A stretch of 64,000 nucleotides of DNA from a plasmid. This document shows, piece by piece, positions 1,351-52,620 of the stretch. The translations under genes and the position numbers were made by a program. Positions within the stretch are counted from its first letter, which is position 1. Every line of letters begins with the position of its first letter. The notes under the pieces were generated by a model, which did no database searches, was not told the DNA's origin, and worked only from the letters and a program-made list of their open reading frames with translations. Where the stretch lies: the sequence record NZ_CP015284.1; one strand, 5' to 3'.

Positions 1351-1408
1351 TAATGTCCAAACGCTTACGCTGATTCTTATTGTAGCATAAAACATTCTAT
1401 AGTCAATG

Positions 1409-2314
1409 TTAGTAATTACTTGTGGCTGTACCGTCTAAGTAGTTAATATTAGCATTCTTTGAAACGTTCTGAAGTGTGACCGAACTCACATTTCCATCAC
1501 TTGTTGCTAATCCTTCTTCTGATAGTTCAACTCCATACTGTGAACCATTTTCATCAAAGGACGTCCAGTAAAGCGTTACAGTTCTTGGAATTAGCTCATT
1601 GCCAGTATAGTTTGCAACAACACAATAATCTAAGTACATATTTGGGTTTTTCTTCAACCATTTGGCTAGTGCATTTTCGTAGTATAGCATACCGTTAGGA
1701 TTATTAGTATCCGTTTTACTATCAGACATCGTTCCTGCATTCAAATAGCGTGTCATAGGTACTAGATTTTTGATTTCAGAATTCAATCCAGAAAACTGAT
1801 AACCAATAAGATGGCCACGATTCATCAGATATGCTTTTTTAACTTTTCCAGACTCATCTTCGTACTTGAAACGATAGTTATGCCAACCGACTGGATCAAC
1901 ATTAATTTTACTTTCCCTATCATCTTGTGGTTTATCCGAATACTTTAGTCTGATGTGCCCATATGTTGCTCTACCAAGACTATCCAAATCTCCATTGACC
2001 ATTAGCTTATGGTTTTCAAAAGGCAATGGACTATAGTTAAAAGCATCAGACTTTCCACCACTTGTTTTAGAAGAACTGTTTCCTGTTTCCGAAGATTCTG
2101 ACTTGGGAATAAATTTCCCAAATAATTTTCCGACATCACTTGAATTGGCATGCTCTCCTTTACTAATAACATTAAAGCCACTAGATAAAATACCAGGTAC
2201 ATTAATTCCTTGGGACATACCATATCCAGCTATACAAAACATAACAACAATAGCTATCGGTATCCAAATCAGACTGCCAAGACAACCTCTTTTTTCATTG
2301 TTTTTTCTAAGCAT
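1409..2314 (-). CDS. membrane-anchored DNA/RNA non-specific endonuclease (EndA/streptodornase-like beta-beta-alpha-Me nuclease)
   Basis: 301 aa. N-terminal TM helix (LIWIPIAIVVMFCIAGYG). NRGHLIGYQFSG motif resembles the DRGH catalytic motif of DNA-entry/non-specific nucleases. Confidence 0.7.
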   Translation of the reverse strand: MLRKNNEKRGCLGSLIWIPIAIVVMFCIAGYGMSQGINVPGILSSGFNVISKGEHANSSDVGKLFGKFIPKSESSETGNSSSKTSGGKSDAFNYSPLPFENHKLMVNGDLDSLGRATYGHIRLKYSDKPQDDRESKINVDPVGWHNYRFKYEDESGKVKKAYLMNRGHLIGYQFSGLNSEIKNLVPMTRYLNAGTMSDSKTDTNNPNGMLYYENALAKWLKKNPNMYLDYCVVANYTGNELIPRTVTLYWTSFDENGSQYGVELSEEGLATSDGNVSSVTLQNVSKNANINYLDGTATSNY

Positions 2315-2432
2315 AAGACCTCCTTAATTCTCTATAAATTCATTATAGACTTAGGAGTCACTATTCGTAACCCAGTGACATAAAAAAGACCTTAAGTGGC
2401 CTTTTGACTAATCTGGAGATAAGTTCATACTA

Positions 2433-3416
2433 TCAATCAATAAATCTTATAAGGTGATTCTTATCTAAACTATATCCTTGTATTTCAGCAACTTTCTTAA
2501 TATCACCTGTCTCTTTATAAACAATAGAGGCGTGGCTGTCTTTTAAAATGCTAGGAGTTATTACCTTACCATAAGCATGTCCAATGTTCTTTGCCAAATG
2601 ACCTATTGTATTTCTCCCCATAGGCTTTTTCAACATGGTTAAAAATAATGACGGTATAGAAGGGTCTAAGTCCCAGCGTCCACGTCGTTCCTTAACAAAT
2701 GGAGCTATGTAAGGAATTGTGAAAGGAAGAAAACGGATAAATTGTTTCTCATTGTTCCTAACAACCCAAATTCCTTTTTTACGCATATCAATATCCCTAA
2801 CTGTCAAGTTAACAACTTCTTGTGTACTTGCTCCAGTACCAATTATGATTGCAAATATAGCAATATTTCGCTCTTTCTCGTTTTCCCAATTATCAGCCTT
2901 TTTCTGAGTTGGTAGAGTTGTAACATAACTGTTTGCCATGAAATCAAGTAGACCTTCTAGCTCTTGCTGCGTATACAAAATAGTATTCTTCTTTGATTCC
3001 GAATATATAATGTTATGGTAACTCTCTTTATAAACAATCTTCCATTCATCAAAAACGTTACGATAAAATAAAGGCATACCTCTCTCAACTGTAAAAGAGG
3101 TATTCGTAAGGAAACTCCAAAAAGCTGCTAAAGTATAGAGTATGAATCTTTTCCCTACTGGTTTCAGACGTAAATTTGCCAAATAATTTTGAACAAATTC
3201 TCGTGGTAATTTTTCTAAGTCTGTCAATGATAGGGAGGCACCCTCTTTATCAATCGTAATTGCATAGCTATTTAAAAATTTCTGGATCACTGACAAACGT
3301 TCAACCATTTTGGGAGAAGGCTCTTCGACATCTACTTGAAGGTAAGATATATACTCATCTATAATATCTGGTAATTGCCTTCTGAGTGCTAGATATTTAT
3401 CTTTCTGTTTTGACAT
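2433..3416 (-). CDS. XerS-like tyrosine-recombinase-fold protein, apparently catalytically degenerate
   Basis: By-eye alignment with the XerS at 52709..53782: FYRNV, NEKERNIAIFAIIIGTGASTQEVVNL vs NKERDLAVIALLLSTGVRLSELVNL, and PYI motifs. Arg I replaced (GTGAS vs STGVR). Box II reads SILKDSHAS instead of HKLRHTLAT. No C-terminal catalytic Tyr (ends ...NHLIRFID vs ...VEVYAHV). Confidence 0.6.
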   Translation of the reverse strand: MSKQKDKYLALRRQLPDIIDEYISYLQVDVEEPSPKMVERLSVIQKFLNSYAITIDKEGASLSLTDLEKLPREFVQNYLANLRLKPVGKRFILYTLAAFWSFLTNTSFTVERGMPLFYRNVFDEWKIVYKESYHNIIYSESKKNTILYTQQELEGLLDFMANSYVTTLPTQKKADNWENEKERNIAIFAIIIGTGASTQEVVNLTVRDIDMRKKGIWVVRNNEKQFIRFLPFTIPYIAPFVKERRGRWDLDPSIPSLFLTMLKKPMGRNTIGHLAKNIGHAYGKVITPSILKDSHASIVYKETGDIKKVAEIQGYSLDKNHLIRFID

Positions 3417-3552
3417 AATTCTCCTCCTCTCAATAATGATAGCAATTAACTACAGGTTTACCACTACTTATTTTTAAACCTATTATATCATACAAGATTG
3501 CATGTTGATTTTAGATTTAACTAGTATAAAAAATCTCTAAAACAAAATAGCG

Positions 3553-3580
3553 ATACATCGTGTATCGCTATTATATATAT
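3553..3580. promoter_or_regulatory. near-perfect palindrome atagcgataca-n5-tgtatcgctat (dif-like two-arm site candidate)
   Basis: 11-bp inverted arms between rep and the XerS-like gene. Core CGATACA/TGTATCG recurs in the 7.1-8.0 kb repeat field and at 10090-10100. Confidence 0.45.
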
Positions 3581-3607
3581 AATCTATCTACAAAAATACA
3601 TCTGAAG

Positions 3608-5071
3608 TTATACTTTAAAATAATCAAGTATCTCAGTCAAGAGTTGTTCTCTTGTCTCTTCAAAGTGGCTATCAGACAGTGACTCTAAACCTTTATCTTT
3701 AAGTTCCCACAGCTTCTCTTGCAACAGTTTCTCTGCTAAATGTTTAATATCCGCCTTGTTATCTTCGTCAGGCGTCTTTGAGAGTTCTATTTTAATTGCT
3801 GATTTAACTGCTACTACTACTAGTCCTAAACGGTCTTTTTCATCCGTTCCATTTTCATAGTTTGGCTCAGACCAGTCTGGAACATTTGAAGGACGATTAT
3901 CCTTATTAGTTGGATGACTATCTCTCAAATCTGAAAGTTTTGTGTACCCTGCTACTTCCCATTTATTGAGCAACGTTCTTGTCCAACCGAAAGTACGGTT
4001 TGCATCACTTCCTGTTCTTTCCAACGCCTCAATAACTAGTTCATGGTCCATTGTTTCAAGCCAACGTTTGAGTTGATTTTTATTATTGTAGTTGTCAGCC
4101 TTGCTCCCTTTAGGAAAAACAGTGTAGAATTTCTCCATCACGATAGCCATCTTACGTTTGAAGTCTAACTCCTTCTTCTTCTCAAAGGTAATGACTTTAT
4201 CGTTTGTTGCAACAATACGTCTCAAATCGTCATCGAACGGTTTAAACCTAAATATATAGTGGGTAATTGATTTTCCTTTTTTGATTCGCTCTACTGTCAA
4301 ATCTTGTATTACAGGAAGGCCATGCTCATCAACTAATAGCGTATTGATTTCATCCATTGCTTGCTGCAGCTTAGTACCTTTCGAACGAAGTAAACTTGGA
4401 CTATCCAAGATCAAAACTTCTTGCTCTAGTTCTTCAGCTGTATCTTTTACAAAACCTGTTTTACGCCAGTCTGCTAGATGTCTAAATAATCGTTTAGAAT
4501 ACTTACTCTTCAATAGGTTATGGTAGTCACGTCCATACTGAATGTACTTAGCTTTTTTACCCCACTCTGGGTTGTTAAAAAGGTCTTTAACTGTACGCCT
4601 GACCGCTACTTTTACTTTTGTTCCATCTTCTGTAGTTACTTCATCATATTCAGTATATTCCGCATCAGACAGGTGGATTTTAATGAGTTTGTTTTCGTGG
4701 TCTACTCTAAAGGTCTTGAACAGTGGGATGGAGGTGTAAGAGACAACCTTACCATCGACAACCTTTTCGGGATGTCGATATACAATTTTAGTCATTCTTT
4801 CCTCTAGTTCCTCAACTGTAGTTTCAAATCGCTTACCAGTCCTAGGAACAATTTTTTGTTCCCTAGAACTGTAAAATGTATTTCCTGCTAGCATTGCCAG
4901 ACTCGAATAAGAAAATATTGCTGCTTCGTTTTCATCATAAACATCTCGCAACTCACCAAATATAGAGTAAATCATATTTTCTTGAAGAGGAGAAAGGTCG
5001 CCAAGTTGGAACATTTGGGTAAACTTATTATCATATTTGATGATTTCTCTGAACTCTCTATTCTCTACCAA
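3608..5071 (-). CDS. theta-type replication initiator (Rep_3-like N-terminal region fused to DnaD-like C-terminal domain)
   Basis: 487 aa. C-terminal NKNQLKRWLETMDHELVIEALERTGSDANRTFGWTRTLLNKWEVAGY resembles DnaD/replisome-organiser domains. Iteron array lies immediately upstream. Confidence 0.55.
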   Translation of the reverse strand: MVENREFREIIKYDNKFTQMFQLGDLSPLQENMIYSIFGELRDVYDENEAAIFSYSSLAMLAGNTFYSSREQKIVPRTGKRFETTVEELEERMTKIVYRHPEKVVDGKVVSYTSIPLFKTFRVDHENKLIKIHLSDAEYTEYDEVTTEDGTKVKVAVRRTVKDLFNNPEWGKKAKYIQYGRDYHNLLKSKYSKRLFRHLADWRKTGFVKDTAEELEQEVLILDSPSLLRSKGTKLQQAMDEINTLLVDEHGLPVIQDLTVERIKKGKSITHYIFRFKPFDDDLRRIVATNDKVITFEKKKELDFKRKMAIVMEKFYTVFPKGSKADNYNNKNQLKRWLETMDHELVIEALERTGSDANRTFGWTRTLLNKWEVAGYTKLSDLRDSHPTNKDNRPSNVPDWSEPNYENGTDEKDRLGLVVVAVKSAIKIELSKTPDEDNKADIKHLAEKLLQEKLWELKDKGLESLSDSHFEETREQLLTEILDYFKV

Positions 5072-5184
5072 ACGCTTCTACCTCTCTTAGTTCATTCATC
5101 ATACATTTTGGTTGTATTTTAAATAAAAGTAATTATTTTACTACAAGCTAATTACTTACTGCAATATGTGACAGGGTATAAAAA

Positions 5185-5495
5185 TATTAATTTACAACCC
5201 TTTTGTATGATATTATATCATTAATATTCTGATTTTCATAGTATTTTTTAAAATTTACAACCATTTTGTAGGATATACCTGCAATTTTATATGACACACA
5301 TGCATTTTTGTAGACTTAACATACAACTTTATAGGATATACATACCGTTTTGTAGGATACGCCTACAATTTTATATGACATACATACATTTTTGTAGACT
5401 TAACATACAACTTTGTGTGACTTTCATGCAAAGTTATATGATATACCTACCAATTTGTAGGATATACATACAATTTTATATGATAAAGGTAGGCT
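5185..5495. repeat. iteron array / putative replication origin (about ten tandem 21-22 bp units TTTTRTAGGATAYAC...)
   Basis: Visible tandem units ttttgtaggatatacctgcaa / ttttatatgacacacatgcat / ttttgtagacttaacatacaac repeated, with an AT-rich tract 5170-5260. A further single copy lies at about 5700-5730. Track ORF 5291..5506 is an artefact of this array. Confidence 0.6.
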
Positions 5496-5733
5496 TAGCT
5501 CAGTAATAGCAAGGGGTTCAGGAGTTCTACTACTTAAACTATAATTAACTACTTAGTTACTATTATTAACCACTTAATACTACTTAATACTATTTAAACT
5601 ATTATTACTAAATGTTCTTAATCATAATTGAAACCATAAAATAAAAAAAATTCTTTAAAAAAGATACAACTCATATAAAGAATAAAAAGTGTAGAAATAC
5701 CTACACTTTTGTATGATATAACATAAAGTTTTC

Positions 5734-6258
5734 CTACTTAAAGCTCATCTCAGTTTCTACTAATGTGTTAAACAACTCCTTTTGTTCTGGATCTAGAAGT
5801 TGGTACACATGGTCTAACATTTCAGTGAATAGCTTATCAGAACCACCGCGTTTAGGATAATTGCCATTTTCTCCTTTAAGGTCTTTTTTGTTTAAAACAG
5901 CTCTTAATGCAGAAAAACGTGACATTGATAATTGTGTCATATTGAGATTTGCACGTGATTTTTCTTCCACTGTTTTAGCTGGTTCCAGTTTTGTAGGAAG
6001 TTTATTTTTTTCTTTTTTCTGAGTGACATCGTTTACTTTTTTAGGGGCAACAGCAGCTTTTTTTGGTTCTACACTTTCTTCAGTTAGATAAGCAATATCA
6101 TGCTTTTCCTTAAGTTTATCAATTACTACTTCTTCAATTTCTTTCCCTTTAAAAAAGCGTTCAAATAATTCTTTAGCTGCTGTTCGGTCATTTGATTCAA
6201 CAGCCGTTAAAAGGTTATTAAAATTTCTTTGTTGGATTGTATTAAGCTTTTTCGCCAT
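5734..6258 (-). CDS. partition protein, putative centromere-binding partner of ParA
   Basis: Overlaps the parA stop by 17 nt. GGAG RBS 7 nt before ATG at 6258 (MAKKLNT...). Lys/Glu-rich, 174 aa. Function inferred from position only. Confidence 0.4.
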   Translation of the reverse strand: MAKKLNTIQQRNFNNLLTAVESNDRTAAKELFERFFKGKEIEEVVIDKLKEKHDIAYLTEESVEPKKAAVAPKKVNDVTQKKEKNKLPTKLEPAKTVEEKSRANLNMTQLSMSRFSALRAVLNKKDLKGENGNYPKRGGSDKLFTEMLDHVYQLLDPEQKELFNTLVETEMSFK

Positions 6259-7072
6259 TGTGTTCTCCAATCGTCTTAATTAGTTCTTTCATAACATTTG
6301 TGATTTGTTTTTTAGGGATGCTATAGCCACTATTTCTGAAAACATTTGCTTGATTAGCAATCATATCTTTGTATTGTTTATTATTAAACAAGTATTGGTC
6401 AAAAACCTTGGTATTATGCTCTTCAGCAATTTCTTCAAGAGTTGCTACTGCTTCTCTTGCTTTGATTTGTTTAATTGATTTTTTACCAAAGCCTGGCCCT
6501 TTATCAACCTGAGTTATAACGATTCCAGCTATAACAATATCAATTCCAAAGAAAGAGAACCCTTCTTGAACAGCTTCAATATCTTCGATTGTATCTTTTA
6601 CACCTTCAATACCAAACTTATCAGGTGTTGTAGGAATAAGAACGAAAACTTTCGAATTTGTAAAAAGAGAACTTGTTGTAGAAACACCAAAAAAAGGAGG
6701 TGTATCAAAAAGTACAAAATCGTAATAGTCATTGATATCTTGTACAACATTTCTTAAACGAAAATCTCTATCTTTTAGTCCTGATGCTTCACTCTCCCAG
6801 TTTTTCATAAGCTTACTTCCAGGAAGCAAATCATAACCGTCAACTGGCACAATGGCATCAGCTACTTCTACTTCTTTTTTTAGTACATCATAAATTCCTT
6901 TATGTTCTTCTTCGTTTACTCCTGCCGCTGTAGTAAGATTGCATTGACCATCAAGATCTCCTGCACAAGTTTTATAGCCAGCGTCTCCTAGAGCTTGAGC
7001 CAGTAATACAGTTAAAGTTGTTTTTGAGGCTCCTCCTTTCTCGTCCATCATTATGACTGTATTTGCAACCAT
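6242..7072 (-). CDS. parA: ParA/Soj-family partition ATPase
   Basis: Deviant Walker A MMDEKGGASKTT. GGAG RBS before ATG at 7072 (MVANT...). Track ORF begins 15 nt further upstream. Confidence 0.85.
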   Translation of the reverse strand: MVANTVIMMDEKGGASKTTLTVLLAQALGDAGYKTCAGDLDGQCNLTTAAGVNEEEHKGIYDVLKKEVEVADAIVPVDGYDLLPGSKLMKNWESEASGLKDRDFRLRNVVQDINDYYDFVLFDTPPFFGVSTTSSLFTNSKVFVLIPTTPDKFGIEGVKDTIEDIEAVQEGFSFFGIDIVIAGIVITQVDKGPGFGKKSIKQIKAREAVATLEEIAEEHNTKVFDQYLFNNKQYKDMIANQANVFRNSGYSIPKKQITNVMKELIKTIGEHNGEKA

Positions 7073-7089
7073 AGAAACTCCTTTCAATC

Positions 7090-8230
7090 CATTATGTACG
7101 ATACACTATGTATAACAAAACGATACATATTATTAACTATTTAAAGTATACCATATAGAAATCTAATAGCAAGTATTATGTAAGATATATCGTAAATAAT
7201 ACAATATACACTATGTATAGCTTATAATGGATTATTGATAATAAGCGTGTTACGCATTAGCTAATACATAGTGTATCGTTTACAATATACTATTTAAAAA
7301 GAAAGCATATGACATATCAAAACTAGACAAGAATAAAACACGATACATTATATAAAATAAACGATGTATCTTATAGATATATAAGATACATATGGTAATG
7401 ATAGATAGGATATATTACTATATTCAAGTTTCCTTCAAGCATTACACATTACACTATACATAACATCACTATATATAGTGTAGTGTAAAAAAGAAATTGC
7501 ACTTTTTTAGTGTACTATAGACGATGTAATATATATCGTTAAATGATATATTGCTAAGTATTATATAGTATACCTTTCATACACTCCTTTATTATAATAA
7601 AGGAGAATATTTTTATTACAACACGATACATAATACATTATGTAGTGTGAATAATATATAGCTTTTGTATTTATCGTATATAGTAGGTAATATACGATAC
7701 ATTATTATAGTGTACTATAGACGATGTAAGATATATTGTTAAATAATGTATTGCTAGGTATTATATCGTATATCTTTCATCCATTCCCTTAATATACTAA
7801 ATAAGAATAGTTGTATTATAATACGTTACACGATACATTATGTAATGTGAATATTGTATAGTACTATCTGTTATCGTATATAATAGATAATATAAGATAT
7901 ATATTGTACGATACATTAAAGAACTATATATGATTATGTTCTTATTGGGTTATAAGTTATATTTAAAATTAGTATAAATGTTGTTCTATGTTGTTTACGA
8001 TACAAGATACATAGTTTAACAATGTATCTTGTATTCCTTTATGATGTTTGACACTTCGCTTATTACGATTGGCGAACTATACATAATGTGTTGTAAACAT
8101 ATAGATTATGTATAGTATATAATGTAATGAAAAATAGTATATATAGTTATAATTTCGAATAACGATAAACTTGTAATGTTAGTAGCTCTTTGCTATACTA
8201 AAGTCATAAATAATTATATTTATATTTTCA
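7090..8230. repeat. AT-rich centromere/promoter-like repeat field with recurring CGATACA/TGTATCG motifs and two about 155-bp direct repeats (7508-7662, 7709-7866)
   Basis: Direct repeat units beginning tagtgtactatagacgatgtaa..., about 80 percent identical. More than 10 copies of acgatacat or its reverse complement. Upstream of the parAB operon. Confidence 0.5.
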
Positions 8231-8239
8231 CCACCTCAA

Positions 8240-8725
8240 ATGGTGAACCTTTGGTCACGTGACTAAAGAAAAGAGAAGCATGGAGGAGGATATGTCATTA
8301 CTGGTTCTGTCCCAGCAATAGGCATACCATGTTTTATAATGGGTTAAAAGGGAGCGTACTCGCTTTTAGCTATCAGTTAAGTCATCAGACAGAAGAAGAG
8401 GCTTAACGCTTATAACAGGTACGAGAAATTGCTTTTCTGACTTTGAAAGGCTACAACAAACGTTATTAGCAACTAAGCATAACGAGAAGTTTATCCTATG
8501 GTTTGCCATAGGCACGCGCAACCTTGTTTTTTGAGACAAGGCTTGCCGGCTTCTTTGTTATGCTTTTTTTGTTTTGAGTTTGGGTAGACAGACAAAAAAG
8601 GGAGGCGACATCTCGATGATTAGAGGTGAGGAACAGGTGTTCCCAACTCTAACTTGTCGGCATACGGAGGAAGGGCTACGAATCAGTATTCGAGGCTTTC
8701 CAAGGTCACTTTACAACAACAATTT
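8240..8725. other. GC-richer structured non-coding segment (candidate oriT/sso or ncRNA)
   Basis: No ORF over 60 aa. Multiple stem-loops (e.g. ccttgttttttgagacaagg, tggtttgccataggc). Distinctly higher GC than flanks. Sits between the partition locus and the primase operon. Confidence 0.3.
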
Positions 8726-8739
8726 TTAAGGAGAAAAAA

Positions 8740-10065
8740 ATGACAAAATTAATCACTATTGGAAATCAAGAGTTAATTCGTGTTGGGCGAGATTACCCTT
8801 GTCCTATTTGTGGGAAACCAGATTGGTGTTTGTTGTTCGCAGATCAATCTAAAGCAGTTTGTGCAAGAAAAATTGACCCAGACAAACCACAATTTGGTAG
8901 TGCTGGGACAATTTATGAATTGGACCCTAAAAAAGCGAAAGAGGTGACTTTTGAACCAAGTTGGAAAAGTCAGCCTTTGGCAAGTATCTCAACACTTCAC
9001 AAGGTAAATTCTCTTGTGATTGATGTGTTAGGATTGACTAAGGAACATGTCGAGCACTTAACAAGTGCGGAACGAGGTCTTTCTGTTGAGACCATTGCAC
9101 TGCGTGGTTACGCTTCATCAACAAAGCAAACACGTCAGAAGCAGGTTGATACAACAGTATCTCATCCAGCAACTATTTGGGAAAAGCTCTTTGTTGCTAA
9201 TGGGCTTCCTAAAGATGCATGGCGTGGAGTGCCTGGCTTCTACTGGAATGAAAACGCAAAATGTCCTATTTTTGAATCAAAAGATGGAATTCTAATTCCA
9301 TGTCGCAATTCTTGGGGACAAATTGTAGGTTTTCAAGTACGTCTTGATAACGTTAGTTATCAAGCCAAAGTAAACGAAGCCTTTCAAGAGGGACGAAATG
9401 CACGTACTGCTAAGGTCTTCCAAAATGACGACGGAAGTTTCGATTGGTATGTGTTTGCTAAAGGTTCATCACACGAACTAGCAAGTGGGACAACTAAGGA
9501 AACTAGTGTTAAACTTCGTTCTGGACTTGAGTTGACATTTAAAAAAGGGCAAAAATATGTCTTTGTTTCGTCAGCATATAAACCAGAAGGAACGAGTGCT
9601 AAGTCCTTTCCCCATTTTGCTTATTCTGATGAAGTCTTAGAACAAGCACGCTTTTCTGAAGAAGGTAAGGCAAAAGTCAATCTTATGAGTAAGGTTGATA
9701 ACCTTCTAGTTACTGAAGGTCTGCTTAAAGGAGATATCACCGCGTCAGTTGCGAAAAACACTCGTCTTTCTCAATTGGGGAATATCTGTGTTATCTCTAT
9801 GGCAGGAGTAGCAGCATGGCGTCCTATCTCGGACTTTATCGGAAAGACTGAACTCAAAAAGGTTAAACCAATTTATCTTGCATTTGACCAAGACTTTGAG
9901 GATAATGACTCGGTATTTGAACGCATGTATGACATGGTTCAAGATCTAGTTACTAAGCAGTCTTGTACGGTTCGTGCTCTAATCTGGCCTCGCGAAAAGG
10001 GAATTGATGATTTCCTTTTGAAAGCATCCCCAGAAGAAAAGATTAAGTTTAAAACTTATCAATGA
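8740..10065 (+). CDS. plasmid/ICE-type DNA primase-like protein (N-terminal zinc ribbon + C-terminal TOPRIM/DUF3854-like domain)
   Basis: CPICGKPDWC zinc-binding motif. TOPRIM signature LLVTEG...IYLAFDQDFEDND (Glu + DxD). Confidence 0.55.
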   Translation: MTKLITIGNQELIRVGRDYPCPICGKPDWCLLFADQSKAVCARKIDPDKPQFGSAGTIYELDPKKAKEVTFEPSWKSQPLASISTLHKVNSLVIDVLGLTKEHVEHLTSAERGLSVETIALRGYASSTKQTRQKQVDTTVSHPATIWEKLFVANGLPKDAWRGVPGFYWNENAKCPIFESKDGILIPCRNSWGQIVGFQVRLDNVSYQAKVNEAFQEGRNARTAKVFQNDDGSFDWYVFAKGSSHELASGTTKETSVKLRSGLELTFKKGQKYVFVSSAYKPEGTSAKSFPHFAYSDEVLEQARFSEEGKAKVNLMSKVDNLLVTEGLLKGDITASVAKNTRLSQLGNICVISMAGVAAWRPISDFIGKTELKKVKPIYLAFDQDFEDNDSVFERMYDMVQDLVTKQSCTVRALIWPREKGIDDFLLKASPEEKIKFKTYQ

Positions 10066-10118
10066 TATAACGCAATATATAGTATGATATACATCGTATA
10101 TCGTACATATAAGAGAAA

Positions 10119-10158
10119 GAGGAAGGTAGTAACCCTAGGCTACACCTTCCTCTTTTTC
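10119..10158 (+). terminator. rho-independent terminator
   Basis: gaggaaggtagt...ctacaccttcctc hairpin followed by TTTTT. Confidence 0.6.
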
Positions 10159-10175
10159 TATGGAGGAGAAAAACA

Positions 10176-11639
10176 ATGACAAATTTACTAACAGCAGCAC
10201 AAAAAACTGCTAAAAAAGTCACTTTTCCCAAGATAAAAGAGACTGATAAAGCTGCAGATATCGTGAGAAAGTTTTGTACTTACTATGCGAATATTCGTAG
10301 ATATCAATGTCAGGAACTTTTATCTCAAGAAGTCGGAGCACTAGCAGTAGAGGTATTTGGACAGGATAATGTTTACACAGCCTATAAAGTCAAAGACATC
10401 ATGGCTGATATCGAAACCATTGGCTATGATCAAGCTCATTTTTCGAATCAACTAAAAAGACTGTTCGAGGGCTTGAGCTTGAGGGATGAAGAAAATCAAG
10501 AACACCTTTTCGGTGAACAGATTCTTCTCACATTAGATGGAAGTAGATTACCTGCTACTAAAACTGCAGAAGACACCAAACGCACTTTGTATCTTCTCAT
10601 TGTCGACGATTCAAAGGTTAGAGTACCTTTGAAGAAAAACCTAAGTTTTTGGAGAGAGAGAAATTCACAAACAAGGTATGGACTAGTATCTTTTAGCTTT
10701 CTTGAATTGATGTCTATCCATAGTGAAGGTATCTACAAGGAATGTAGTTATTATGGAAATATCCAAAAGATAGCTAACGTTCTAAAAAGAGAGTATGAAG
10801 ATGCTCTTGCAGCTAACCTAAATGCACAATATGTTAATCAGTCAACTAAGACGATAGCCAGTGTGCGTGAGGATAAAATCTTTCAAGATCATGAAATGAA
10901 CAGTAATACGTCATTTCTTGATTTAGGGTTTTCGAAAGTTGAAGTGGATACCGAGCGTTATCGAGGTAGTGATTTTGACAAGGAGAAATTCAAGGTTCTA
11001 GAGAACGAATGGGAGAAGTTGTGTAATCACTTACCTCATTCTACTGTAGAACCCGAACTCAAATTCCGGAAGCTAGGAAAACATAAAGCAAGCGGACTTT
11101 ATGTGCCAGGGTTAAATATCATGGCAGTTGATGTAAGAGATTCCTCATCCTTCATCCATGAGTATGGTCATTATTTAGACTATACGTATGATAAAGCTGG
11201 AATCATTAGTTCTACGTCTCATAGCTTTAAAGATATTCGTTATATCTACAAGGCTAGCTTGCTGAAACTTATTCAAATAGCTGAGGAAAGCAGAACGGAC
11301 TTAGCTCAAGCTGTTCATATTAAGAAGAAGTTGGATTATTATTTGACACCGACTGAAGTGTTTGCACGTGGCTTTGAATGGTGGGTTTTTGAAACTTATA
11401 CCAAAGATTCAGAACTGCTATCTGATGAAGCTACTTACTATACTCGATTAGAGTATAGGGCTTTGAGGCAATGTCGACACCTTTTGTTTGCATTTTTTGA
11501 CACGTTCTTTGAGAACTATCGTGCAATGCAACCTATTTATAAGGTTGAGAAGGAGCCAAAAACACTAGTAGCTTGTCGAAAGCCACTTGAAGATAAACCA
11601 ACAACTGAAGGAGAACAGTTAAGCTTGTTTGAGTTCTGA
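10176..11639 (+). CDS. HExxH zinc-metallopeptidase-motif protein, possibly ArdC-like antirestriction/establishment protein
   Basis: HEYGH motif followed by acidic residues. 487 aa. Conserved RBS ggaggagaaaaacaATG. Confidence 0.3.
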   Translation: MTNLLTAAQKTAKKVTFPKIKETDKAADIVRKFCTYYANIRRYQCQELLSQEVGALAVEVFGQDNVYTAYKVKDIMADIETIGYDQAHFSNQLKRLFEGLSLRDEENQEHLFGEQILLTLDGSRLPATKTAEDTKRTLYLLIVDDSKVRVPLKKNLSFWRERNSQTRYGLVSFSFLELMSIHSEGIYKECSYYGNIQKIANVLKREYEDALAANLNAQYVNQSTKTIASVREDKIFQDHEMNSNTSFLDLGFSKVEVDTERYRGSDFDKEKFKVLENEWEKLCNHLPHSTVEPELKFRKLGKHKASGLYVPGLNIMAVDVRDSSSFIHEYGHYLDYTYDKAGIISSTSHSFKDIRYIYKASLLKLIQIAEESRTDLAQAVHIKKKLDYYLTPTEVFARGFEWWVFETYTKDSELLSDEATYYTRLEYRALRQCRHLLFAFFDTFFENYRAMQPIYKVEKEPKTLVACRKPLEDKPTTEGEQLSLFEF

Positions 11640-11652
11640 GAGGAGAAAAACA

Positions 11653-12033
11653 ATGACTGAAATGACGGTCAAAAAGTATTTGGAACCTTATTACACTTTA
11701 GATAGAGTGGCATTAGGTTCAATACTAGAAACAGCTAGGAAAGAATTAGATAGACCTCTATCTCTTCAAGATGTTGCAAATAGAATTGGGGTTTTTAAAG
11801 GAACTGTCAATAATTATGAAAAAGGACGGTCTATTCCTAAAGAACCACAATTTTCGATGCTTTGTAAACTGTATAAAATTGATAAGGTTGACCTTATCAA
11901 TAAAACTACAATTCTTGATAGAGATAAGGTTCTTTCCAAACGTTACGAATTGTTGAGTACGATTCGTGAATTGCAGAAAGAAGCTGCAGAGTTAAAGCTG
12001 TTACTAGAAACTGAAAAAGGAGAAAAACAATGA
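11653..12033 (+). CDS. XRE-family helix-turn-helix transcriptional regulator
   Basis: LQDVANRIGVFKGTVNNYEKGRSIP HTH. Start chosen at ATG after the conserved gaggagaaaaacaATG motif; the track ORF starts 24 nt upstream. Confidence 0.65.
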   Translation: MTEMTVKKYLEPYYTLDRVALGSILETARKELDRPLSLQDVANRIGVFKGTVNNYEKGRSIPKEPQFSMLCKLYKIDKVDLINKTTILDRDKVLSKRYELLSTIRELQKEAAELKLLLETEKGEKQ

Positions 12034-12812
12034 TTGTAAACAATATTTTAAAAGAAGCTATCGATAATAATATCCAAGATATTACCTTCTTCCCACATGG
12101 TGAAGATTACGAGGTAGCATTTAGAACTGCTGATGTTAAACAGGTCCATGACTTCATTTCATCAGAAGATGCGGATGCTCTATTTGGTCATATTAAATTT
12201 ATAGCTGAAATGGACTTAACAGAAAAACGTTGTAGTCAGGTAAGAACTTGTGACTATGAGTTGGACGATGGTAGAGTTATTACCATTAGGATATCGACGA
12301 TAGTTAATTTTCAAGGACTAGAAACGATGTCTATCCGACTTATTCATGTGAATGAACGACGAATTTCTTTGAGTGAGTTTGATAGTAGTTGTATGGAAGA
12401 AGTGCTTAAACAAGTACGCATTCCAGGCTTACATGTCATTACTGGTCCTGTAGGTGTCGGCAAAACGACTTTAGCTTACTCGTTACTTGCTGAAGCTTTT
12501 AAAGAAGGTAAAGTAATGACAATTGAAAGACATGTCGAGATAAAAGATGTATCTTTTTGCCAGCTACAAGTCAATAAGGCTAACGGTATGGAACTGGAAA
12601 AGCTCGTGACTTTTGTATTACGCTTCAACCCTGACGTCTTGTTCATTGGTGAAGCTAATACACAAGAAGAAGTAGAAGCAGTACTTAAGGCTGTTTCTGC
12701 AGGATTAAGTGTCGTTACAACAGTTCATAAAGATGGCTTTTCAATCCCACATGATGTTTTAGAAATGAAACAAGGAAAAGATGGGAAACGAAATGTAGCT
12801 TTGATTAAATAG
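12030..12812 (+). CDS. compact PulE/GspE/ComGA-like secretion ATPase
   Basis: Walker A GPVGVGKTT, Walker B-like DVLFIGE, His-box-like SVVTTVH. N-terminal TFFPHGEDYEVAFRT resembles the ComGA/PilB N-domain. Only 260 aa. Confidence 0.5.
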   Translation: MIVNNILKEAIDNNIQDITFFPHGEDYEVAFRTADVKQVHDFISSEDADALFGHIKFIAEMDLTEKRCSQVRTCDYELDDGRVITIRISTIVNFQGLETMSIRLIHVNERRISLSEFDSSCMEEVLKQVRIPGLHVITGPVGVGKTTLAYSLLAEAFKEGKVMTIERHVEIKDVSFCQLQVNKANGMELEKLVTFVLRFNPDVLFIGEANTQEEVEAVLKAVSAGLSVVTTVHKDGFSIPHDVLEMKQGKDGKRNVALIK

Positions 12813-12824
12813 AGGAGAAAAACA

Positions 12825-13286
12825 ATGACGATGGAAATTAATGATTTTGACCGCTTCATGGCAGTAAGCCATTTTGATGATGAAATGGCGGAAGCTCACA
12901 CACCGACTGAGGATGCTATTCATAATTGGGTAGTTGATAATCAAGAGGATGATGAGCTGATTGCTGGGATTCTCAAACATCTTGATCGTACGATTAAGGA
13001 TGCTATGGCTTACTGCATCAGAAAAGCCAGTAAATCTGACTATAGAGAGGGTCAGGGTGCTATGGTTGATGATGCCACAGTCTTTTCTTGGGTTAAAGAG
13101 TATTTTACCGCTGAAAAGGTTGAGACTAAACCAGTTGTAGGTAAAATGACTACTGGTAGTAAGAAATCAACCAAGCAACCAACGAAGAAGCCAAAAAAGA
13201 AAAAACCAACTAAGAAAACTCCTGAAAAGGATGAGAAACAGTTAGATCTTTTTTCGGATTTATCTATTGAAGAAGGCGAATTTTAA
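12825..13286 (+). CDS. hypothetical protein, acidic N-terminus and Lys/Pro-rich tail
   Basis: ORF with conserved RBS motif. KKPKKKKPTKK tail. Confidence 0.45.
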   Translation: MTMEINDFDRFMAVSHFDDEMAEAHTPTEDAIHNWVVDNQEDDELIAGILKHLDRTIKDAMAYCIRKASKSDYREGQGAMVDDATVFSWVKEYFTAEKVETKPVVGKMTTGSKKSTKQPTKKPKKKKPTKKTPEKDEKQLDLFSDLSIEEGEF

Positions 13287-13299
13287 CAACAATAAATAG

Positions 13300-13327
13300 A
13301 AAAATGGTCCTAGGGCCATTTTTTATT
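13300..13327 (+). terminator. rho-independent terminator
   Basis: aaatggtcctagggccatttttt. Confidence 0.55.
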
Positions 13328-13345
13328 AATTAAGGAGAAAAAACA

Positions 13346-14893
13346 ATGACAAAAGCAGAGAATATTCAAGAAATCGTAGATAATCGTTTAAAAGTTCCTA
13401 ACGGATTTTTCAAATGGGCGAAGAATGATTTTCCTATCTATGAATGGTCAAATAAGTCTAAGACAATTATCTCTTCCGACCGAAAAAAATTCTCGGAAAA
13501 GGTTACAAAACGTTTATCACTTAACAGCCGTTTAACCTTTGTAGGTGATACTTTTTACTATGTCTGGATGGGAGTCACAAAGAAACGTATTGAAATGCAG
13601 ATGTATTCTGTGACTCAATCCTTCGAAAAAGGAAAAGAAAAGTTCAAAGTCAGACTTTACAACTTTTATCAGCTTGCCAACAATAAGATTGTTAAAGCAC
13701 ACCGGGATCCATTTCTTTCAGCCCAAAAAGGTAAAGATATCTATAGAAGTGGATTCCAAAATCAGAGGAATGCTCTCTTTTTTGGTTCTGGTGCATTTAG
13801 TGTCTATACGCTTTATGGGGATATGGAAAGTCTTATTCAGAAATTACAAACAAAGTCTGAGTTGAGATATTTAGATTTTGGACAAGTGATTAAAGATAAT
13901 TTTGAGATAAGCTTAGTACTACCTCATCTCTATAAATATAGAGAACGCATTGAATTCGCTCAAAAAATCAAGGCGCGTGGAATCGTCAAAGACTTGGTGG
14001 GGTCTACTTTTTATAGGTCTTATTACTCATCTAGTCTAGGACATGGTCATGCAAATATGGGTAAGGTTACCATGAACTTTCTTAAAAGGAATAAACCGTT
14101 TCTAAAAAATACGGATATGAATGTTGAAAAGGCATTTTTTGAGGAAGATTTGCGTAAACGATATGGTCGAACTTTCAAGGGGTTATACGAGTTGCTTCCA
14201 AACGCTATGATTTCTGACAAGAAGCCACTAATTAAGCGTTTGGAAAGTATCTTACCATCCACTGTGAAACCAATTCGTTTTATTAACTGGATGATGAAAA
14301 ACAATATCTCCCTTCGTGATTATGAGGACTATCAAGAAATGGTAGAAGCTCTGGGAATTCCATTTGATGGAGATTATGTAGTTATCCCAAAAAATTGGGA
14401 AAACAAACATACAGAGATCGTAGAAAATTATTCAACTTTTCTCGAGAATCAACAAGCACGTGGTACATATTTACGTGTAACTAATGCTGTCAGAGATTTG
14501 AGAGCAGAGAAACAACGCCTTGAGGACGAAAAGAAAGAGGCGAAGTTGAGGGTTGAAACAGCTAAACGTTTGACAAACATGATGAAGGCTCAGACCGCAT
14601 TTGACAAGTATGCTTTTATCTTTCCTAAAGACGAAAGTGAAATTGTCAAAGAAGGCAAAACCCTACATCATTGTGTTGGAAGTTATGCAAAAAAACACTT
14701 TGTATACGGAACTTCTATTATTGTCTTTGTTCGTGATAAAGAACACAGAGAAACCCCTCTCTATACTCTTGAATTGAAGAACAATAGGATTATTCAACTG
14801 AAAGGAGAAAGGAACAAATCCGCAGATGAAGAGGCAAAGAAAGAAGCAGAACTATTTTTAGCCCATTGTGGAAAGCTTAACATTCAGTTTTAG
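13346..14893 (+). CDS. conjugative-plasmid-associated protein of unknown function (possibly PcfJ-like)
   Basis: 515 aa. C-terminal HHCVGSY...GERNKS region. Family assignment from memory only. Confidence 0.3.
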   Translation: MTKAENIQEIVDNRLKVPNGFFKWAKNDFPIYEWSNKSKTIISSDRKKFSEKVTKRLSLNSRLTFVGDTFYYVWMGVTKKRIEMQMYSVTQSFEKGKEKFKVRLYNFYQLANNKIVKAHRDPFLSAQKGKDIYRSGFQNQRNALFFGSGAFSVYTLYGDMESLIQKLQTKSELRYLDFGQVIKDNFEISLVLPHLYKYRERIEFAQKIKARGIVKDLVGSTFYRSYYSSSLGHGHANMGKVTMNFLKRNKPFLKNTDMNVEKAFFEEDLRKRYGRTFKGLYELLPNAMISDKKPLIKRLESILPSTVKPIRFINWMMKNNISLRDYEDYQEMVEALGIPFDGDYVVIPKNWENKHTEIVENYSTFLENQQARGTYLRVTNAVRDLRAEKQRLEDEKKEAKLRVETAKRLTNMMKAQTAFDKYAFIFPKDESEIVKEGKTLHHCVGSYAKKHFVYGTSIIVFVRDKEHRETPLYTLELKNNRIIQLKGERNKSADEEAKKEAELFLAHCGKLNIQF

Positions 14894-15009
14894 ATAAGAG
14901 GAGAAAAATAGAATCGTCAATAGGTTATTAGTCAATCTCGAATTTTCTGTGCTATACTAAAGAAAACATTAGATGTATTCTCTAGTAAAATGCTGGGAGG
15001 ACAATAGTT

Positions 15010-15357
15010 ATGAAATTGACTATTATTATATATAACAACAAAAGGATGGTTGGGAAATACCTAGTTGATACGGTTAGTGAGACTATAGAAACGTTTGTAA
15101 GAAAAGATGATTATCTGTTAAATACAGAATTCACTTATGAACGGATGGTAGACTTTCTAAAAGGGCGTCAAATTGATTTTGGTCGAAAAAATCGAAAAGA
15201 GCTTTTAGGCTATACTTATAAAGCTCCAGATGTCTGGCATGAAATTGCCATGACACACGGTTTTGATACCGATGATTTTTATTGGGTATCAATACCAGAA
15301 CTCAACGATGAACCGTTTGTTTTAGAAGACCATCATCCTAACTTAGGAAGACGATAA
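15010..15357 (+). CDS. hypothetical protein
   Basis: 115-aa ORF followed by a terminator. Confidence 0.4.
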   Translation: MKLTIIIYNNKRMVGKYLVDTVSETIETFVRKDDYLLNTEFTYERMVDFLKGRQIDFGRKNRKELLGYTYKAPDVWHEIAMTHGFDTDDFYWVSIPELNDEPFVLEDHHPNLGRR

Positions 15358-15378
15358 ACAATTATTTTAACGAAAAAG

Positions 15379-15411
15379 AAAGACTTGGTATTGTACCAGG
15401 TCTTTTTTTGT
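15379..15411 (+). terminator. rho-independent terminator
   Basis: agacttggtattgtaccaggtct + TTTTTTT. Confidence 0.6.
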
Positions 15412-15431
15412 TTTAAGGAGAAAGAACAACA

Positions 15432-18400
15432 ATGGAAGAACAAAAAAATAATACTAAAACAATGACTAAAGCAGAAAAGGTTCAAGCTAACCTTTCTGCT
15501 ATTAAACTTGTGAAAGCACTCGAAGCAGATAACCGTCTAGCTGATAGTGCCGAACAAGAAATTCTCTCTAACTATGTTGGTTGGGGAGGACTTGCTAACG
15601 ATTTCTTTGATAGTAAGATTAATCGTTTTGCAAAAGAACGTGATGAGCTAAAAAGTCTTGTCACTAAAGAAGAATATCGTGCGATGGAAATGAGCTCCTT
15701 GACGGCTTACTACACAAGTCCAGAGATTGCTACTGCAATGTGGGATAAGATTGTAGAAAGTGGTTTTAAAGGAGGTAATATTCTTGATCCATCAATGGGT
15801 ACTGGTATCTTCTTTGAAACAATGCCAGAGGACATCAAGAAGAATTCTACACTTTATGGAATTGAACTTGATACCATTACTGGTGCTATTGCTAAACACC
15901 TTCATCAAGATGCTACTGTTTTAGTCCAAGGATTTGAAACAGTAAACTTTGAAGGGACCCCATTTGACTTGGTCATTACGAATGTTCCATTTGCGGATGT
16001 TCGCATTGTCGATAAGGCTTATGATAATAAACCTTATCGTATTCATGATTACTTCTTTAAGAAAGCTATCGATTTGGTACCCTATCATGGGATGGTTGCT
16101 GCTATCACTTCAACTGGTACTGCAGATAAGAGTGCTGGTTCAATTCTGCCAGAACTCCGTCGTAGCGGAACTCAGTTTTTAGGTGGTGTCCGCTTACCAA
16201 ATACTGCTTTTAAAGATGCTGGAACACGAGTGGTAACAGATATCCTATTTTTCCAAAAAGGAGCTTTTATCCCTGTTCCCGATAATAATATCGACTTTTG
16301 GTCTTCAGATAGAAATAAACTCCCCTTTGATAAACGTGTCTCACTCAATCCCTATTTCTTCCAGGATGCTATTTGTAAAAATCCTTGTGTCCTAGGTGAT
16401 TATCAGGTACGTAATTTCAATGGTGGAACACTGGATCTTGTGGTAGATAGCTCTTTTGACTTAGCTTCAGAGCTTCAAGAAGCACTATCAAAAGTAACAG
16501 TGCCTTTCGAAGTAGAGAGACTAGAACCTCGTGATATTATCCTTAAAGAAGAAGTGAATCATCTTGACCAAGGCTTACTTACTTCACTTGATATTCGATT
16601 GAATGAGTATGCTTGTGATAAAAATGGGCGTGTCTATTATCGTGATAACACGTCTATCCGTCCTAGCTCACGCGCAGCTGAAATGATTTTTTATCAAGAC
16701 GAACAAGGACAGTTCGTAAAATACGATGATAAATACAAAGAAGAAGCCATTTTAGACTTTGAAGCAGCAGTAGAAGCAGACCCTAATATTGTTACAAATA
16801 CATGGGTAAGTCAAACACCTTCTAAAGCAGCTAAAAGTAAAGGGCTTTACAAAGGTATTTATTTCTATGAAACACCCCTTACGGATACAGAAAACAAGCG
16901 TATCCGTGGCATGGTTGCTATCAAAAATGCTTATCAAGCCATTATTGATATTCAAATGACGACAGACTATGATGAAGGGAAATTCAAACAACTGCTTGCA
17001 ACACTTAATCAAGCCTACGATACTTTCAAGAAGAAGTATGGTTATATCAATCAAGCGGTGAATGCTCGCCTCTTTGACCGAGATGACCGTTATCCTCTTA
17101 TCGCTAGTCTTGAATTAGAGGAGTTGGACGAGAATGACAGCTCAAAGGTAGTCTTTGTGAAGTCAGATGCTTTTAAAAAGCCAACTATTCGTCCTAAAAA
17201 ACACCTCCATCAAGTGATGTCAGCAGTAGAAGCTTTGAATGTGTCGCTTTCAGAAGGTCGTGGCGTTGATTTGAACCTCATGAGTTCTGTCTATCCAGAT
17301 GTTTCAGAAGATATGATGATTTCAGAACTAGGTGAGACAGTGATGATTGATGTGGAACGCTATATTGATGATAAGACTGTACACTATGTTACTAAGGATA
17401 AATTCCTTTCCGGTGATGTTCTTGCTAAACGTGATTGCATTAACTCTCTCATTGAAGACGGAGATACACAAGCGGATTGGGAACGATATTTGGAATTGAT
17501 TTTATCTGTTGTACCAGAACCAGTTGTCTTATCTGATATTGATTTCAGCATTGGTTCTAGCTGGATTCCTAGTAACGTCGTTTCTCAATGGGTGTTTAGT
17601 GAATTGTTGGATGAAAAGGTTGGTCTCCATTCTGAAGAAGCTAAATCACTATTAGTGACATCCAGAATCGGACGAGGTTTCAACGAACGCTTGTTAAACT
17701 GCTATATGAGTCGTCAATCTAACCTTCGTTTAGGTCTACGTGATGAGTACAATAAAAGCTACTCACACGCAACAGATATTGTGGCTCACTTGCTTACAAG
17801 TAATCAACCAACAATCATGCGTAACTTTGGTACGACTGAAAATCCTGTACGTAAGGTTGATGAAGTGGCAACAGCAAACCTACGTGAGTGTGAGCGTGTT
17901 CTACAAGAAAGCTTTAAGAACTTTATTCATGAAAACCCAACAGTTCAAGAAGTGATTGAGGATACCTACAATGAAGTCTTTAATCGCTATGTGACACGTC
18001 AATATGATGGAAGTCTCTTGGAATTTGATGGGTTGGCTAAAGGAGTAGAGCTTCGCCCTCACCAAAAAAATGCGGTACAACGTATTCTTGAAGAGAGACG
18101 TGCACTACTTGCTCACGAAGTGGGTACTGGTAAGACACTAACCATGATTTCTGCAGCTTTCAAGATGAAAGAACTAGGGCTTATTCATAAACCATTGTTT
18201 GTGGTTCCATCTAGTCTAACAGCACAATTTGGTCAAGAAATTATGCGTTTCTACCCTACCAAGAAAGTGTTTGTTACGACTGAGCAGGACTTTGAAAAGT
18301 CACGTCGTCGCTTGTTCGTTTCTCGTATTCTAACGAGCGACTATGATGGTATTGTGATTGGGCATTCTCAATTTGAGAAAGTTCGTGTCTCACAAGAACG

Positions 18401-31924: not shown

Positions 31925-32008
31925 AAAAGTATTTTAAATGTTTACCTAATAATACCCTAACTAGCCTTGAAAGTTTTTCAAGGCTAGTTGCATAGTGAGA
32001 GTAATGAT

Positions 32009-43640: not shown

Positions 43641-43745
43641 TTGACAGCGTTCGAGATTGTGCAAACCATTCTAGGCTTTGGTAGTTTTACTATCGCTCTA
43701 ATTGGATTATGCTACAAACTCTTTAAAGACGATGACAAAAAATAA
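43641..43745 (+). CDS. holin-like toxin peptide (type I toxin-like, 34 aa, TTG start)
   Basis: LTAFEIVQTILGFGSFTIALIGLCYKLFKDDDKK. GGAG 7 nt upstream. Followed immediately by a terminator. Confidence 0.4.
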   Translation: MTAFEIVQTILGFGSFTIALIGLCYKLFKDDDKK

Positions 43746-43746
43746 T

Positions 43747-43792
43747 CCGTCCCCACTTTTGGCGAAGTAAGACGGATTATTTTCGTTTAAAA
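43747..43792 (+). terminator. rho-independent terminator
   Basis: aatccgtccccacttttggcgaagtaagacggatt + ATTTTCG. Confidence 0.5.
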
Positions 43793-52526: not shown

Positions 52527-52620
52527 AATTGTCTGTTGAGCCTATTTTAACGGCTCTTTTTTTGGCTCTCAGATACATGCCTAGCTCCAGATAAACTTAC
52601 AATTTAAAAAGCTGCTGACG

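Follow-up and report, generated by a model that had tools for sequence, protein, structure and literature searches.

Xer recombinases have been treated as enzymes, whereas the protein reported here belongs to a discrete, selected family that is unable to carry out that chemistry. Its nearest described relative is XerS, which in streptococci and lactococci is the one tyrosine recombinase responsible for resolving chromosome dimers, acting at difSL (PMC1914069, PMC5357621). Recombinase folds that have given up catalysis are known from other branches of the superfamily. MrpR, YopR and SroF are non-catalytic, recombinase-fold master repressors of SPbeta-like phages, of which SroF is monomeric when it clamps its 24-bp operator (PMC10516654; bioRxiv 10.1101/2025.11.27.690993), and TnsF of the Tn6022-like Tn7 transposons uses an inactivated tyrosine-recombinase domain as a target selector (PMC10293859). 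TcpM, MobK and MpsA are recombinase-fold proteins with a non-recombination function on plasmids or islands that lack a classical relaxase, and MobK requires its Tyr (PMC8152469, PMC6414798). Here we examined a stretch of 64,000 nucleotides from the plasmid record NZ_CP015284.1 (the window), in which a gene at positions 2433-3416 on the minus strand encodes a XerS-like protein of 327 amino acids. We consider it probable (roughly 0.6) that this is a XerS-derived pseudo-recombinase that has survived in the plasmid core as a DNA-binding protein without catalytic activity.

The open reading frame begins with ATG and is preceded by a strong GGAGG ribosome-binding site. By BLASTP, its product is 27% identical across 267 residues (E = 2e-28) to a canonical XerS encoded on the same plasmid and also within the window. 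The two have the two-domain architecture and the FYRNV linker motif in common, and XerS is the closest sequence family. The top NCBIfam model is likewise the XerS equivalog (NF003462), with a score of 123.7 bits, and the XerA, XerD and XerC models score far lower. However, the equivalog cut-off is 267 bits, a value that the canonical plasmid copy clears with 438 bits. The Pfam Phage_integrase domain (PF00589) is matched at 42.7 bits against a cut-off of 27.1. The catalytic positions were located from three independent alignments, namely BLASTP to XerS, phmmer to the XerA and XerD structures, and MAFFT with 18 relatives, all of which gave the same residue placement (Table 1). None of them recovered the XerS active site of Arg-I, Lys, His-II, Arg-II, His-III and Tyr. 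Furthermore, the chain stops at residue 327, two residues past the position of the nucleophile, where XerS runs 10-25 residues further. By score, active site and length the protein is therefore not a XerS, and it is a member of the superfamily at the level of fold only. A preliminary description of this locus, made by eye, had claimed homology to the plasmid XerS, Ser in place of Arg-I, Lys and Asp in box II, no C-terminal Tyr, and a gene lying directly downstream of rep. These claims were borne out by the BLASTP and NCBIfam results, by the residues found (Ser197, Lys292/Asp293 and Phe325), by alignments that did not restore Arg, His or Tyr at the catalytic positions, and by the gap of 192 bp that separates rep from the gene downstream of it.

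We found that the protein is not an isolated case. A word-indexed search turned up homologous proteins in a metagenome (61% identity) and in S. agalactiae (41% identity), and a profile search of 1.84 billion representative sequences returned about 13 further clusters of 310-341 amino acids with scores of 175-354 bits. After these there was a clear gap in score, the next proteins reaching no more than 129 bits and being 350-380 amino acids long. The XerS NCBIfam model, which is the best model for every family member, draws the same line, giving 55-145 bits to members and 400-448 bits to the next, canonical XerS proteins. The family thus delimited has about 14 clusters on streptococcal plasmids, with 27-59% identity. 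When 14 members were aligned with MAFFT, only one retained Arg-I, the others having Thr or Ser (12 members) or Asp (one member) in its place; His-II was absent throughout; the Arg-II position held Arg in eight, Lys in five and Gln in one; and His-III was gone from 10 of the 11 members that extend to that position, a single member retaining it. The nucleophile Tyr is retained in seven members, substituted in four (by Phe in the window protein) and absent through earlier truncation in three, and the beta-hairpin Lys is not conserved across the alignment. The XerS C-terminal tail is missing from all 14, the chains ending within a few residues of the Tyr position or earlier. Invariant residues specific to the family include a NEWK motif following FYRN, and Trp100. 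In summary, the family differs from XerS in scoring 55-145 bits against the 267-bit cut-off, in its lost active site, in being about 30 residues shorter for want of the tail, and in its location, a plasmid replication and partition block and not the chromosome terminus. Another difference is that no adjacent difSL-like site was found for the window gene in searches with a working difSL consensus and with the arm of the plasmid's own difSL-like repeat.

Selection on the gene was estimated from six megaplasmid copies. Pairwise ratios of nonsynonymous to synonymous substitution rates (dN/dS) were 0.05-0.12, which resembles the values for parA (0.02-0.10 in most pairs) and slightly exceeds those for rep (0.01-0.06). 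Constraint is stronger on the ex-catalytic C-terminal half, where dN is 0.003-0.008, dS is 0.06-0.32 and the ratio is 0.02-0.05 in most pairs. The gene is intact and full-length in all eight related megaplasmids in PLSDB, and the 90%-identity cluster of the protein holds 1774 member sequences. A scan with one genome per species contained only three close copies, and the wider gene context described below was drawn from metagenome contigs and PLSDB. The loss of catalytic residues is the sole support for regarding the gene as a decaying pseudogene or as annotation noise. Against this, the intact copies, the dN/dS values, the size of the 90% cluster and the constancy of length and neighbourhood among family members as little as 27% identical leave that view with virtually no probability, and on these selection and conservation data we ruled it out.

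The preliminary description had also proposed an AlphaFold model, and the one we obtained from a 132-sequence alignment is confident (predicted local distance difference test, pLDDT, 94.1; predicted template modelling score 0.78) and has the form of a two-domain recombinase clamp; it replaced a model from 5 sequences with pLDDT 48.8, which was set aside. Foldseek matched it to XerA, XerH-difH (template modelling score 0.58), Cre-lox, IntI4 and Tn1549 Int, all with probability 1.00. A Phage_integrase domain together with an N-terminal core-binding domain, arranged as a C-shaped clamp, places the protein in the tyrosine recombinase superfamily. The isoelectric point is 8.9-9.8 in 13 of the 14 family members, as for XerS, the remaining member (P0018) having a value of 7.7. 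Since the fold is intact and the charge basic, the DNA clamp appears to have been kept and the chemistry lost, and with a recombinase fold, a lost active site and a gene under selection the protein has the attributes of a pseudo-enzyme.

Our reading of the protein as a non-catalytic DNA-binding component of the plasmid core draws on homology, loss of catalytic residues, purifying selection, fold, basic charge and conserved synteny. The protein would retain the two-domain C-shaped clamp, minus the active site and the XerS C-terminal tail, and its gene would be a conserved backbone gene of a streptococcal family of Rep3/ParA conjugative-type plasmids. Judging from its fold and charge, it most likely binds DNA, possibly acting as a monomer or dimer without a recombination synapse, and has a regulatory or maintenance role. 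Binding would be sequence-specific, with the protein serving as a regulator or architectural factor of the plasmid core and its fold being used as in MrpR/SroF and TnsF. Several considerations weigh against this. We found no motif shared upstream of the XerS-like gene across lineages and identified no DNA target; the case for DNA binding is made up of the predicted fold and the charge; some members may have residual or unusual chemistry, as half of them keep the Tyr and one keeps Arg-I; and the conserved neighbourhood may reflect a syntenic backbone and not functional coupling.

The precedents resemble the window protein in general kind. Like MrpR, YopR and SroF, which are pure DNA clamps, it combines a core-binding domain with a catalytic-type domain, has lost catalysis and is encoded on a mobile element. 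However, those repressors have mapped 24-bp operators and an antirepressor; no close sequence relationship to them was detectable and they were not among the PDB sequence or fold matches listed; and the present family derives specifically from XerS. TnsF offers a dead recombinase domain devoted to the recognition of a DNA site on a mobile element, with its active ancestor Tsy still extant, as active XerS is. Unlike the window protein, TnsF has an N-terminal zinc-finger region, tandem core-binding domains and transposase machinery. The statement in the preliminary description that no such protein had been described is thus too broad for the general kind, of which the SPbeta repressors and TnsF are examples, but holds for relatives of XerS in the literature searched: full-text searches found no paper describing this family. 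What is new is the origin in the Xer branch, the setting in a plasmid replication and partition core, and the size and coherence of the family. That setting includes the bacteriocin megaplasmids of S. salivarius, which are replicons of the probiotic strains K12 and M18 (PMC3681767), and related streptococcal plasmids. If a target were found, this would be the third independent case of a tyrosine-recombinase clamp recycled for DNA binding, after the SPbeta repressors and TnsF, and it could explain part of the maintenance or regulation of these large plasmids. Automated annotation calls the protein 'tyrosine-type recombinase/integrase' or 'recombinase XerS' and attaches Gene Ontology terms for DNA integration; typing schemes for mobile elements should leave it out of their integrase counts.

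A palindrome lies between rep and the XerS-like gene, as the preliminary description had noted. It reads atagcgataca-tcg-tgtatcgctat, so that the spacer is 3 nt and not the 5 nt first reported, and it occupies positions 3546-3572 if the arms are counted as 12 bp. In the rep sense it stands 36 bp past the rep stop codon and consists of a 12-bp stem and a 3-nt loop followed by UUUUGUUUU, with a predicted RNA folding energy of -15.3 kcal/mol (z = -3.7). A terminator scan calls this site, one of six such sites in 3.5 kb where 1.1 are expected. The stable stem-loop, the U-run and the placement at the rep 3' end in the rep sense are the features of an intrinsic (rho-independent) terminator. The palindrome is invariant in five plasmids except for one flipped 3-nt loop, as would be expected for a hairpin in which the stem matters. 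The flip was observed in the S. salivarius ICDC2 plasmid (L009, 5001-5227), where the loop is inverted in place, giving CATCGTG versus CACGATG. In pSAL813 (L002), an insertion sequence of the IS200/IS605 family (tnpA) occupies the T-tract after the palindrome at about 3260-4010, equivalent to about 3538 of the window; the palindrome remains with rep, some 0.8 kb from a XerS-like gene that is still intact.

The same palindrome is a perfect copy of a dyad, GATACA-n3-TGTATC, that with up to two mismatches has 12 occurrences in the window where 3.4 would be expected, a number that no shuffle reached; six of the 12 are upstream of parA. The half-site CGATACA is present in 11 copies window-wide (4.2 expected; 1 of 100 shuffles reaches 11), two of them in the palindrome and nine at 7099-8004 upstream of parA. 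The link in sequence between palindrome and partition repeats that had been noticed earlier is real, and CGATACA is indeed spread through the par region, although the count there is nine and not above 10. Within this centromere-like region we also observed a duplicated 162-bp unit (7500-7661 and 7700-7861; 200-bp spacing, 83% identity). With parA, a small putative adaptor gene and repeats upstream, the locus has the layout of a type Ib partition system. Adaptors of this type, such as omega of pSM19035 and ParG of TP228, bind short repeats and often regulate other plasmid genes, and the small par protein is on that account the default reader of the dyads. The omega and ParG systems are further similar in having 7-bp repeats, direct and inverted, upstream of parA, with additional repeats beside other genes of the backbone, and in the small size of the second par gene. 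The 178-amino-acid protein here is a candidate adaptor, with no Pfam or PDB sequence match and a ribbon-helix-helix assignment made by eye. This protein is 91-98% identical among the S. salivarius plasmids and unrelated in three other lineages (L007, L014 and L020).

Lineage L007, whose XerS-like protein is 61% identical to that of the window, shows no enrichment of CGATACA, and its small par protein is 19% identical. It has a dyad of its own, GACATAATTATGTC, with 10 matches against 1.05 expected. Perfect copies are found just past the stop codon of the XerS-like gene, ahead of the nuclease gene, and also in the interval that separates the par genes; of the copies with two mismatches, one adjoins the first perfect copy and one is downstream of the nuclease gene; and five degenerate copies are upstream of parA. 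Partition-type dyads near backbone genes are, as far as their sequences tell, a recurrent design in these plasmids, and their placement in L007 suggests that the partition adaptor also regulates backbone genes. The window palindrome is most simply explained as a rep terminator combined with a partition-type dyad that the small par protein reads.

The preliminary description had instead tentatively linked the palindrome and the CGATACA repeats to the XerS-like protein as a maintenance or regulatory factor, and we considered it as a centromere or maintenance factor that binds them. The perfect dyad in the palindrome and its enrichment upstream of parA would suit such a role, as would the 27-bp length of the palindrome, which is close to that of a dif-type core site, and the presence in L007 of a different dyad again beside the XerS-like gene and in the par operon, which makes flanking dyad sites a recurrent feature. 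However, the par operon's own small second gene co-varies with the motif equally well; both it and the XerS-like protein change between the two lineages, and we rejected co-variation as a test since it does not discriminate between them. Half-sites of 6-7 bp spaced 3 bp apart would, by analogy, be expected of a small dimer that binds a centromere more than of a pair of recombinase clamps, the core sites of recombinases having arms of 11-13 bp. The palindrome has the full anatomy of a terminator in the rep sense, an insertion sequence separates it from the intact gene in pSAL813, and the L007 gene is divergent from rep with no such palindrome upstream. That the protein is inactive and co-opted is supported by the lost residues, the selection and the clamp fold, but its link to these sites is not supported, given the terminator, the split in pSAL813, the dyads of a par locus with its own second gene and the lack of CGATACA enrichment in L007; we regard this assignment as quite unlikely. 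Alternatively, the protein could associate with or modulate an active XerS, that of the plasmid or that of the host, without cleaving DNA itself, forming asymmetric complexes for multimer resolution or blocking XerS-mediated fusion of plasmid and chromosome. Its origin from XerS with both DNA-binding domains kept, a second XerS-type match in 10 of 11 plasmids that carry the XerS-like gene, and a difSL-like inverted repeat upstream of the plasmid xerS all point this way. Yet the whole family is without the C-terminal tail, through which, if Cre and XerD are a guide, the subunits would make contact with one another; one carrier plasmid (L023) has no second XerS-type match; XerS genes are common on large Firmicutes plasmids without the XerS-like protein; and no difSL-like site was found near the gene. 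A search of the whole window for the difSL consensus with up to 3 mismatches, using a working consensus of which the two arms alone were checked (PMC5357621), gave no match, and no copies of the plasmid's own difSL-like arm were present near the gene, the only nearby dyad being the terminator palindrome. A partnership with XerS is in our view improbable. A wider proposition is that a chromosome-dimer resolvase has given rise, in this dead XerS paralogue, to a new kind of plasmid maintenance factor. It would either read the lineage-specific dyads that flank its gene and the par operon, and so be a protein of recombinase fold serving as a centromere or copy-control factor, or be a non-cleaving partner that redirects or restrains active XerS on the plasmid. 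We regard this proposition as unlikely; were it correct in one form or the other, it would give the Xer branch its first described non-catalytic function on a plasmid.

In favour of a role in conjugation, all carrier plasmids are typed as non-mobilizable by MOB-suite, with no known relaxase, and nonetheless have a coupling-protein gene or PcfJ and DUF3854 genes. In vitro transfer of S. salivarius megaplasmids has been reported (PMC3681767), and in some lineages the gene abuts a DUF3854/LPD1/AcrIIA9/SNF2 block resembling a leading region. The relaxase of this plasmid family appears to be an unrecognised one. The XerS-like protein would then be a relaxosome accessory that binds the origin of transfer (oriT) or an atypical recombinase-like relaxase of the TcpM, MobK or MpsA type, with which it has in common the fold, a location on an element without a recognised classical relaxase and, most likely, a function outside recombination. 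However, those relaxases keep the catalytic pentad and the Tyr and have no core-binding domain (PMC8152469, PMC6414798), and the window protein is the reverse on each count, with a core-binding domain, no active site and Phe for Tyr. We judge a conjugative role decidedly improbable. It is barely credible that the protein has remained enzymatic and recombines or nicks DNA by way of a non-canonical active site. Tyr persists in seven of 14 members and Arg or Lys at Arg-II in 13 of 14, but Arg-I, His-II and His-III are gone in nearly all, the beta-hairpin Lys is not conserved, and the change from Tyr to Phe in the window protein is a classic inactivating one.

Eight Streptococcus megaplasmids, 138-237 kb in size, share bases 1400-7100 of the window with 91-96% identity. 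They include pSsal-NU10, pSAL813 and other S. salivarius or S. equinus plasmids, and all are typed rep_cluster_199; these matches identify the window as a portion of an S. salivarius-type bacteriocin megaplasmid. The features discussed are collected in Table 1.

Table 1. Coordinates of features in the window, residues at the catalytic positions of the XerS-like protein, and dyad sites of lineage L007
Feature	Position	Strand	Evidence or remarks
Membrane-anchored DNA/RNA non-specific endonuclease	1409..2314	-	Endonuclea_NS_2 1.1e-18; synteny
XerS-like pseudo-recombinase gene, 327 aa	2433..3416	-	core-binding domain and ex-catalytic domain, no C-terminal tail
Putative promoter element TTGTATGATATAAT of XerS-like gene, with extended -10 TGATATAAT	3482..3495	-	direct reading; assignment inferred
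Perfect palindrome AATAGCGATACA-CGA-TGTATCGCTATT, then TTTTGTTTT	3546..3572	-	rep intrinsic terminator and par-type dyad GATACA-n3-TGTATC
rep, Rep3-family replication initiator, 487 aa	3608..5071	-	Rep3_N 9.6e-07; replication initiation protein in annotation of related plasmids
Origin iterons, at least 11 units, 21-bp period, core TTTTGTAKGATAT	5189..5490	+	spaced-repeat search
AT-rich short repeats, TACTAnTTAA type, adjoining iterons	5520..5610	+	sequence
Small second par gene, 178 aa, candidate centromere-binding adaptor	5734..6270	-	overlaps parA 3' end
parA, partition ATPase	6242..7087	-	AAA_31 4.7e-34, CbiA, ParA
Centromere-like region upstream of parA	7088..8030	.	9 ACGATACA copies, several GATACA-n3-TGTATC dyads
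Canonical plasmid-borne XerS, 357 aa	52709..53782	+	full catalytic residue set; 438 bits; comparison partner
Arg-I position	Ser197		XerS-like protein of window
His-II position	Ser289		XerS-like protein of window
Arg-II position	Lys292		XerS-like protein of window
Position of His after Arg-II	Asp293		XerS-like protein of window
His-III position	Tyr315		XerS-like protein of window
Nucleophile Tyr position	Phe325		XerS-like protein of window
GACATAATTATGTC dyad sites of L007 (L007 positions)	3518-3547, 4679-4692, 5170-5183, 6217-6624		dyad search

A conserved block made up of Rep, iterons with AT-rich repeats, the XerS-like gene, a membrane-anchored Endonuclease_NS_2 protein, and the small gene with parA recurs, in whole or in the part visible per contig, in lineages down to 28% identity and with three iteron types. 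The window and L007 share one iteron core, TTTTGTAKGATAT; those of L014 (GGCATAAAAGGGATTTATA) and L020 (TCGTAGTTTTTGGTATA) are completely different from it and from each other. The nuclease gene adjoins the XerS-like gene in every lineage with a visible flanking gene, and conjugation-type genes (coupling protein, PcfJ/K, DUF3854 and SNF2 helicase) often come after the block. The majority of lineages have the origin between rep and a divergently oriented XerS-like gene; the lineage of the window is rearranged, with the XerS-like gene placed downstream of rep. The element TTGTATGATATAAT, about 65 bp ahead of the start codon of the XerS-like gene, is identical to an iteron-type 13-mer at 5709-5721, and matches to this 13-mer cluster at the origin. 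Five plasmids have the element unchanged, and it also stands ahead of the L007 homologue. This iteron-type 13-mer with its extended -10 suggests, from sequence, that Rep could influence expression of the XerS-like gene.

The AT-rich repeats were considered as the protein's target and rejected as a feature of the origin. A block of AT-rich repeats lies directly upstream of the XerS-like gene in other Rep3 lineages, and TACTAnTAAT repeats do so in three Rep3 lineages with unrelated iterons. In the window, though, they accompany the iterons and not the XerS-like gene, and the sequence ahead of the gene has none of them in L003, L017, L021 and L022. An operon with the nuclease was likewise rejected: most lineages have a terminator-like hairpin and a separate promoter-like element in the gap that divides the pair, and one plasmid has the two in convergent orientation, which makes co-transcription unlikely. 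In the window, this gap (2315-2432) contains two hairpins: AAAAGGCC-ACTTA-AGGTCTTTTTT, which is weak and terminator-like, and GTCACT-n11-AGTGAC, which closely precedes a TATAAT. The counterpart of the gap in L007 has a similar element containing GGTTACGA. PADLOC returned zero matches to defence systems, PHROGs gave only generic integrase families for the XerS-like protein, and Rfam had no match at its locus.

Some 60 bp upstream of the plasmid xerS, at 52620-52650, there is an imperfect inverted repeat, TATTCGGAAAACAGTTATTTGTTGAATA, whose arms resemble the difSL arms TTTCCGAAAA and TTTTCTTGAAA (PMC5357621) and whose centre looks shorter; it may be the plasmid's own dimer-resolution site. Beyond the partition region, positions 8200-8740 are non-coding and of higher G+C content, ahead of DUF3854, LPD1, PcfJ and SNF2-helicase/methylase-like genes (8740-20948); the equivalent of the latter block in S. 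equinus p1_CNU_G6 includes an annotated AcrIIA9 anti-CRISPR. The region 8200-20948 looks like a conjugative leading region, and oriT may lie there. A protein of 854 amino acids encoded at 27901-30465 has RamC_N, protein kinase and LanC-like domains, which indicate a class III/IV lanthipeptide synthetase, and its gene is followed by an ATP-binding cassette transporter gene (31988-33730). Rfam identified two copies of the streptococcal small RNA Srn266 (37279-37388 and 52415-52524), one of them directly beside an ISL3-like transposase gene (51147-52403), as well as an rli28 and RatA antitoxin-RNA pair at 43527-43866, a possible type I toxin-antitoxin locus.

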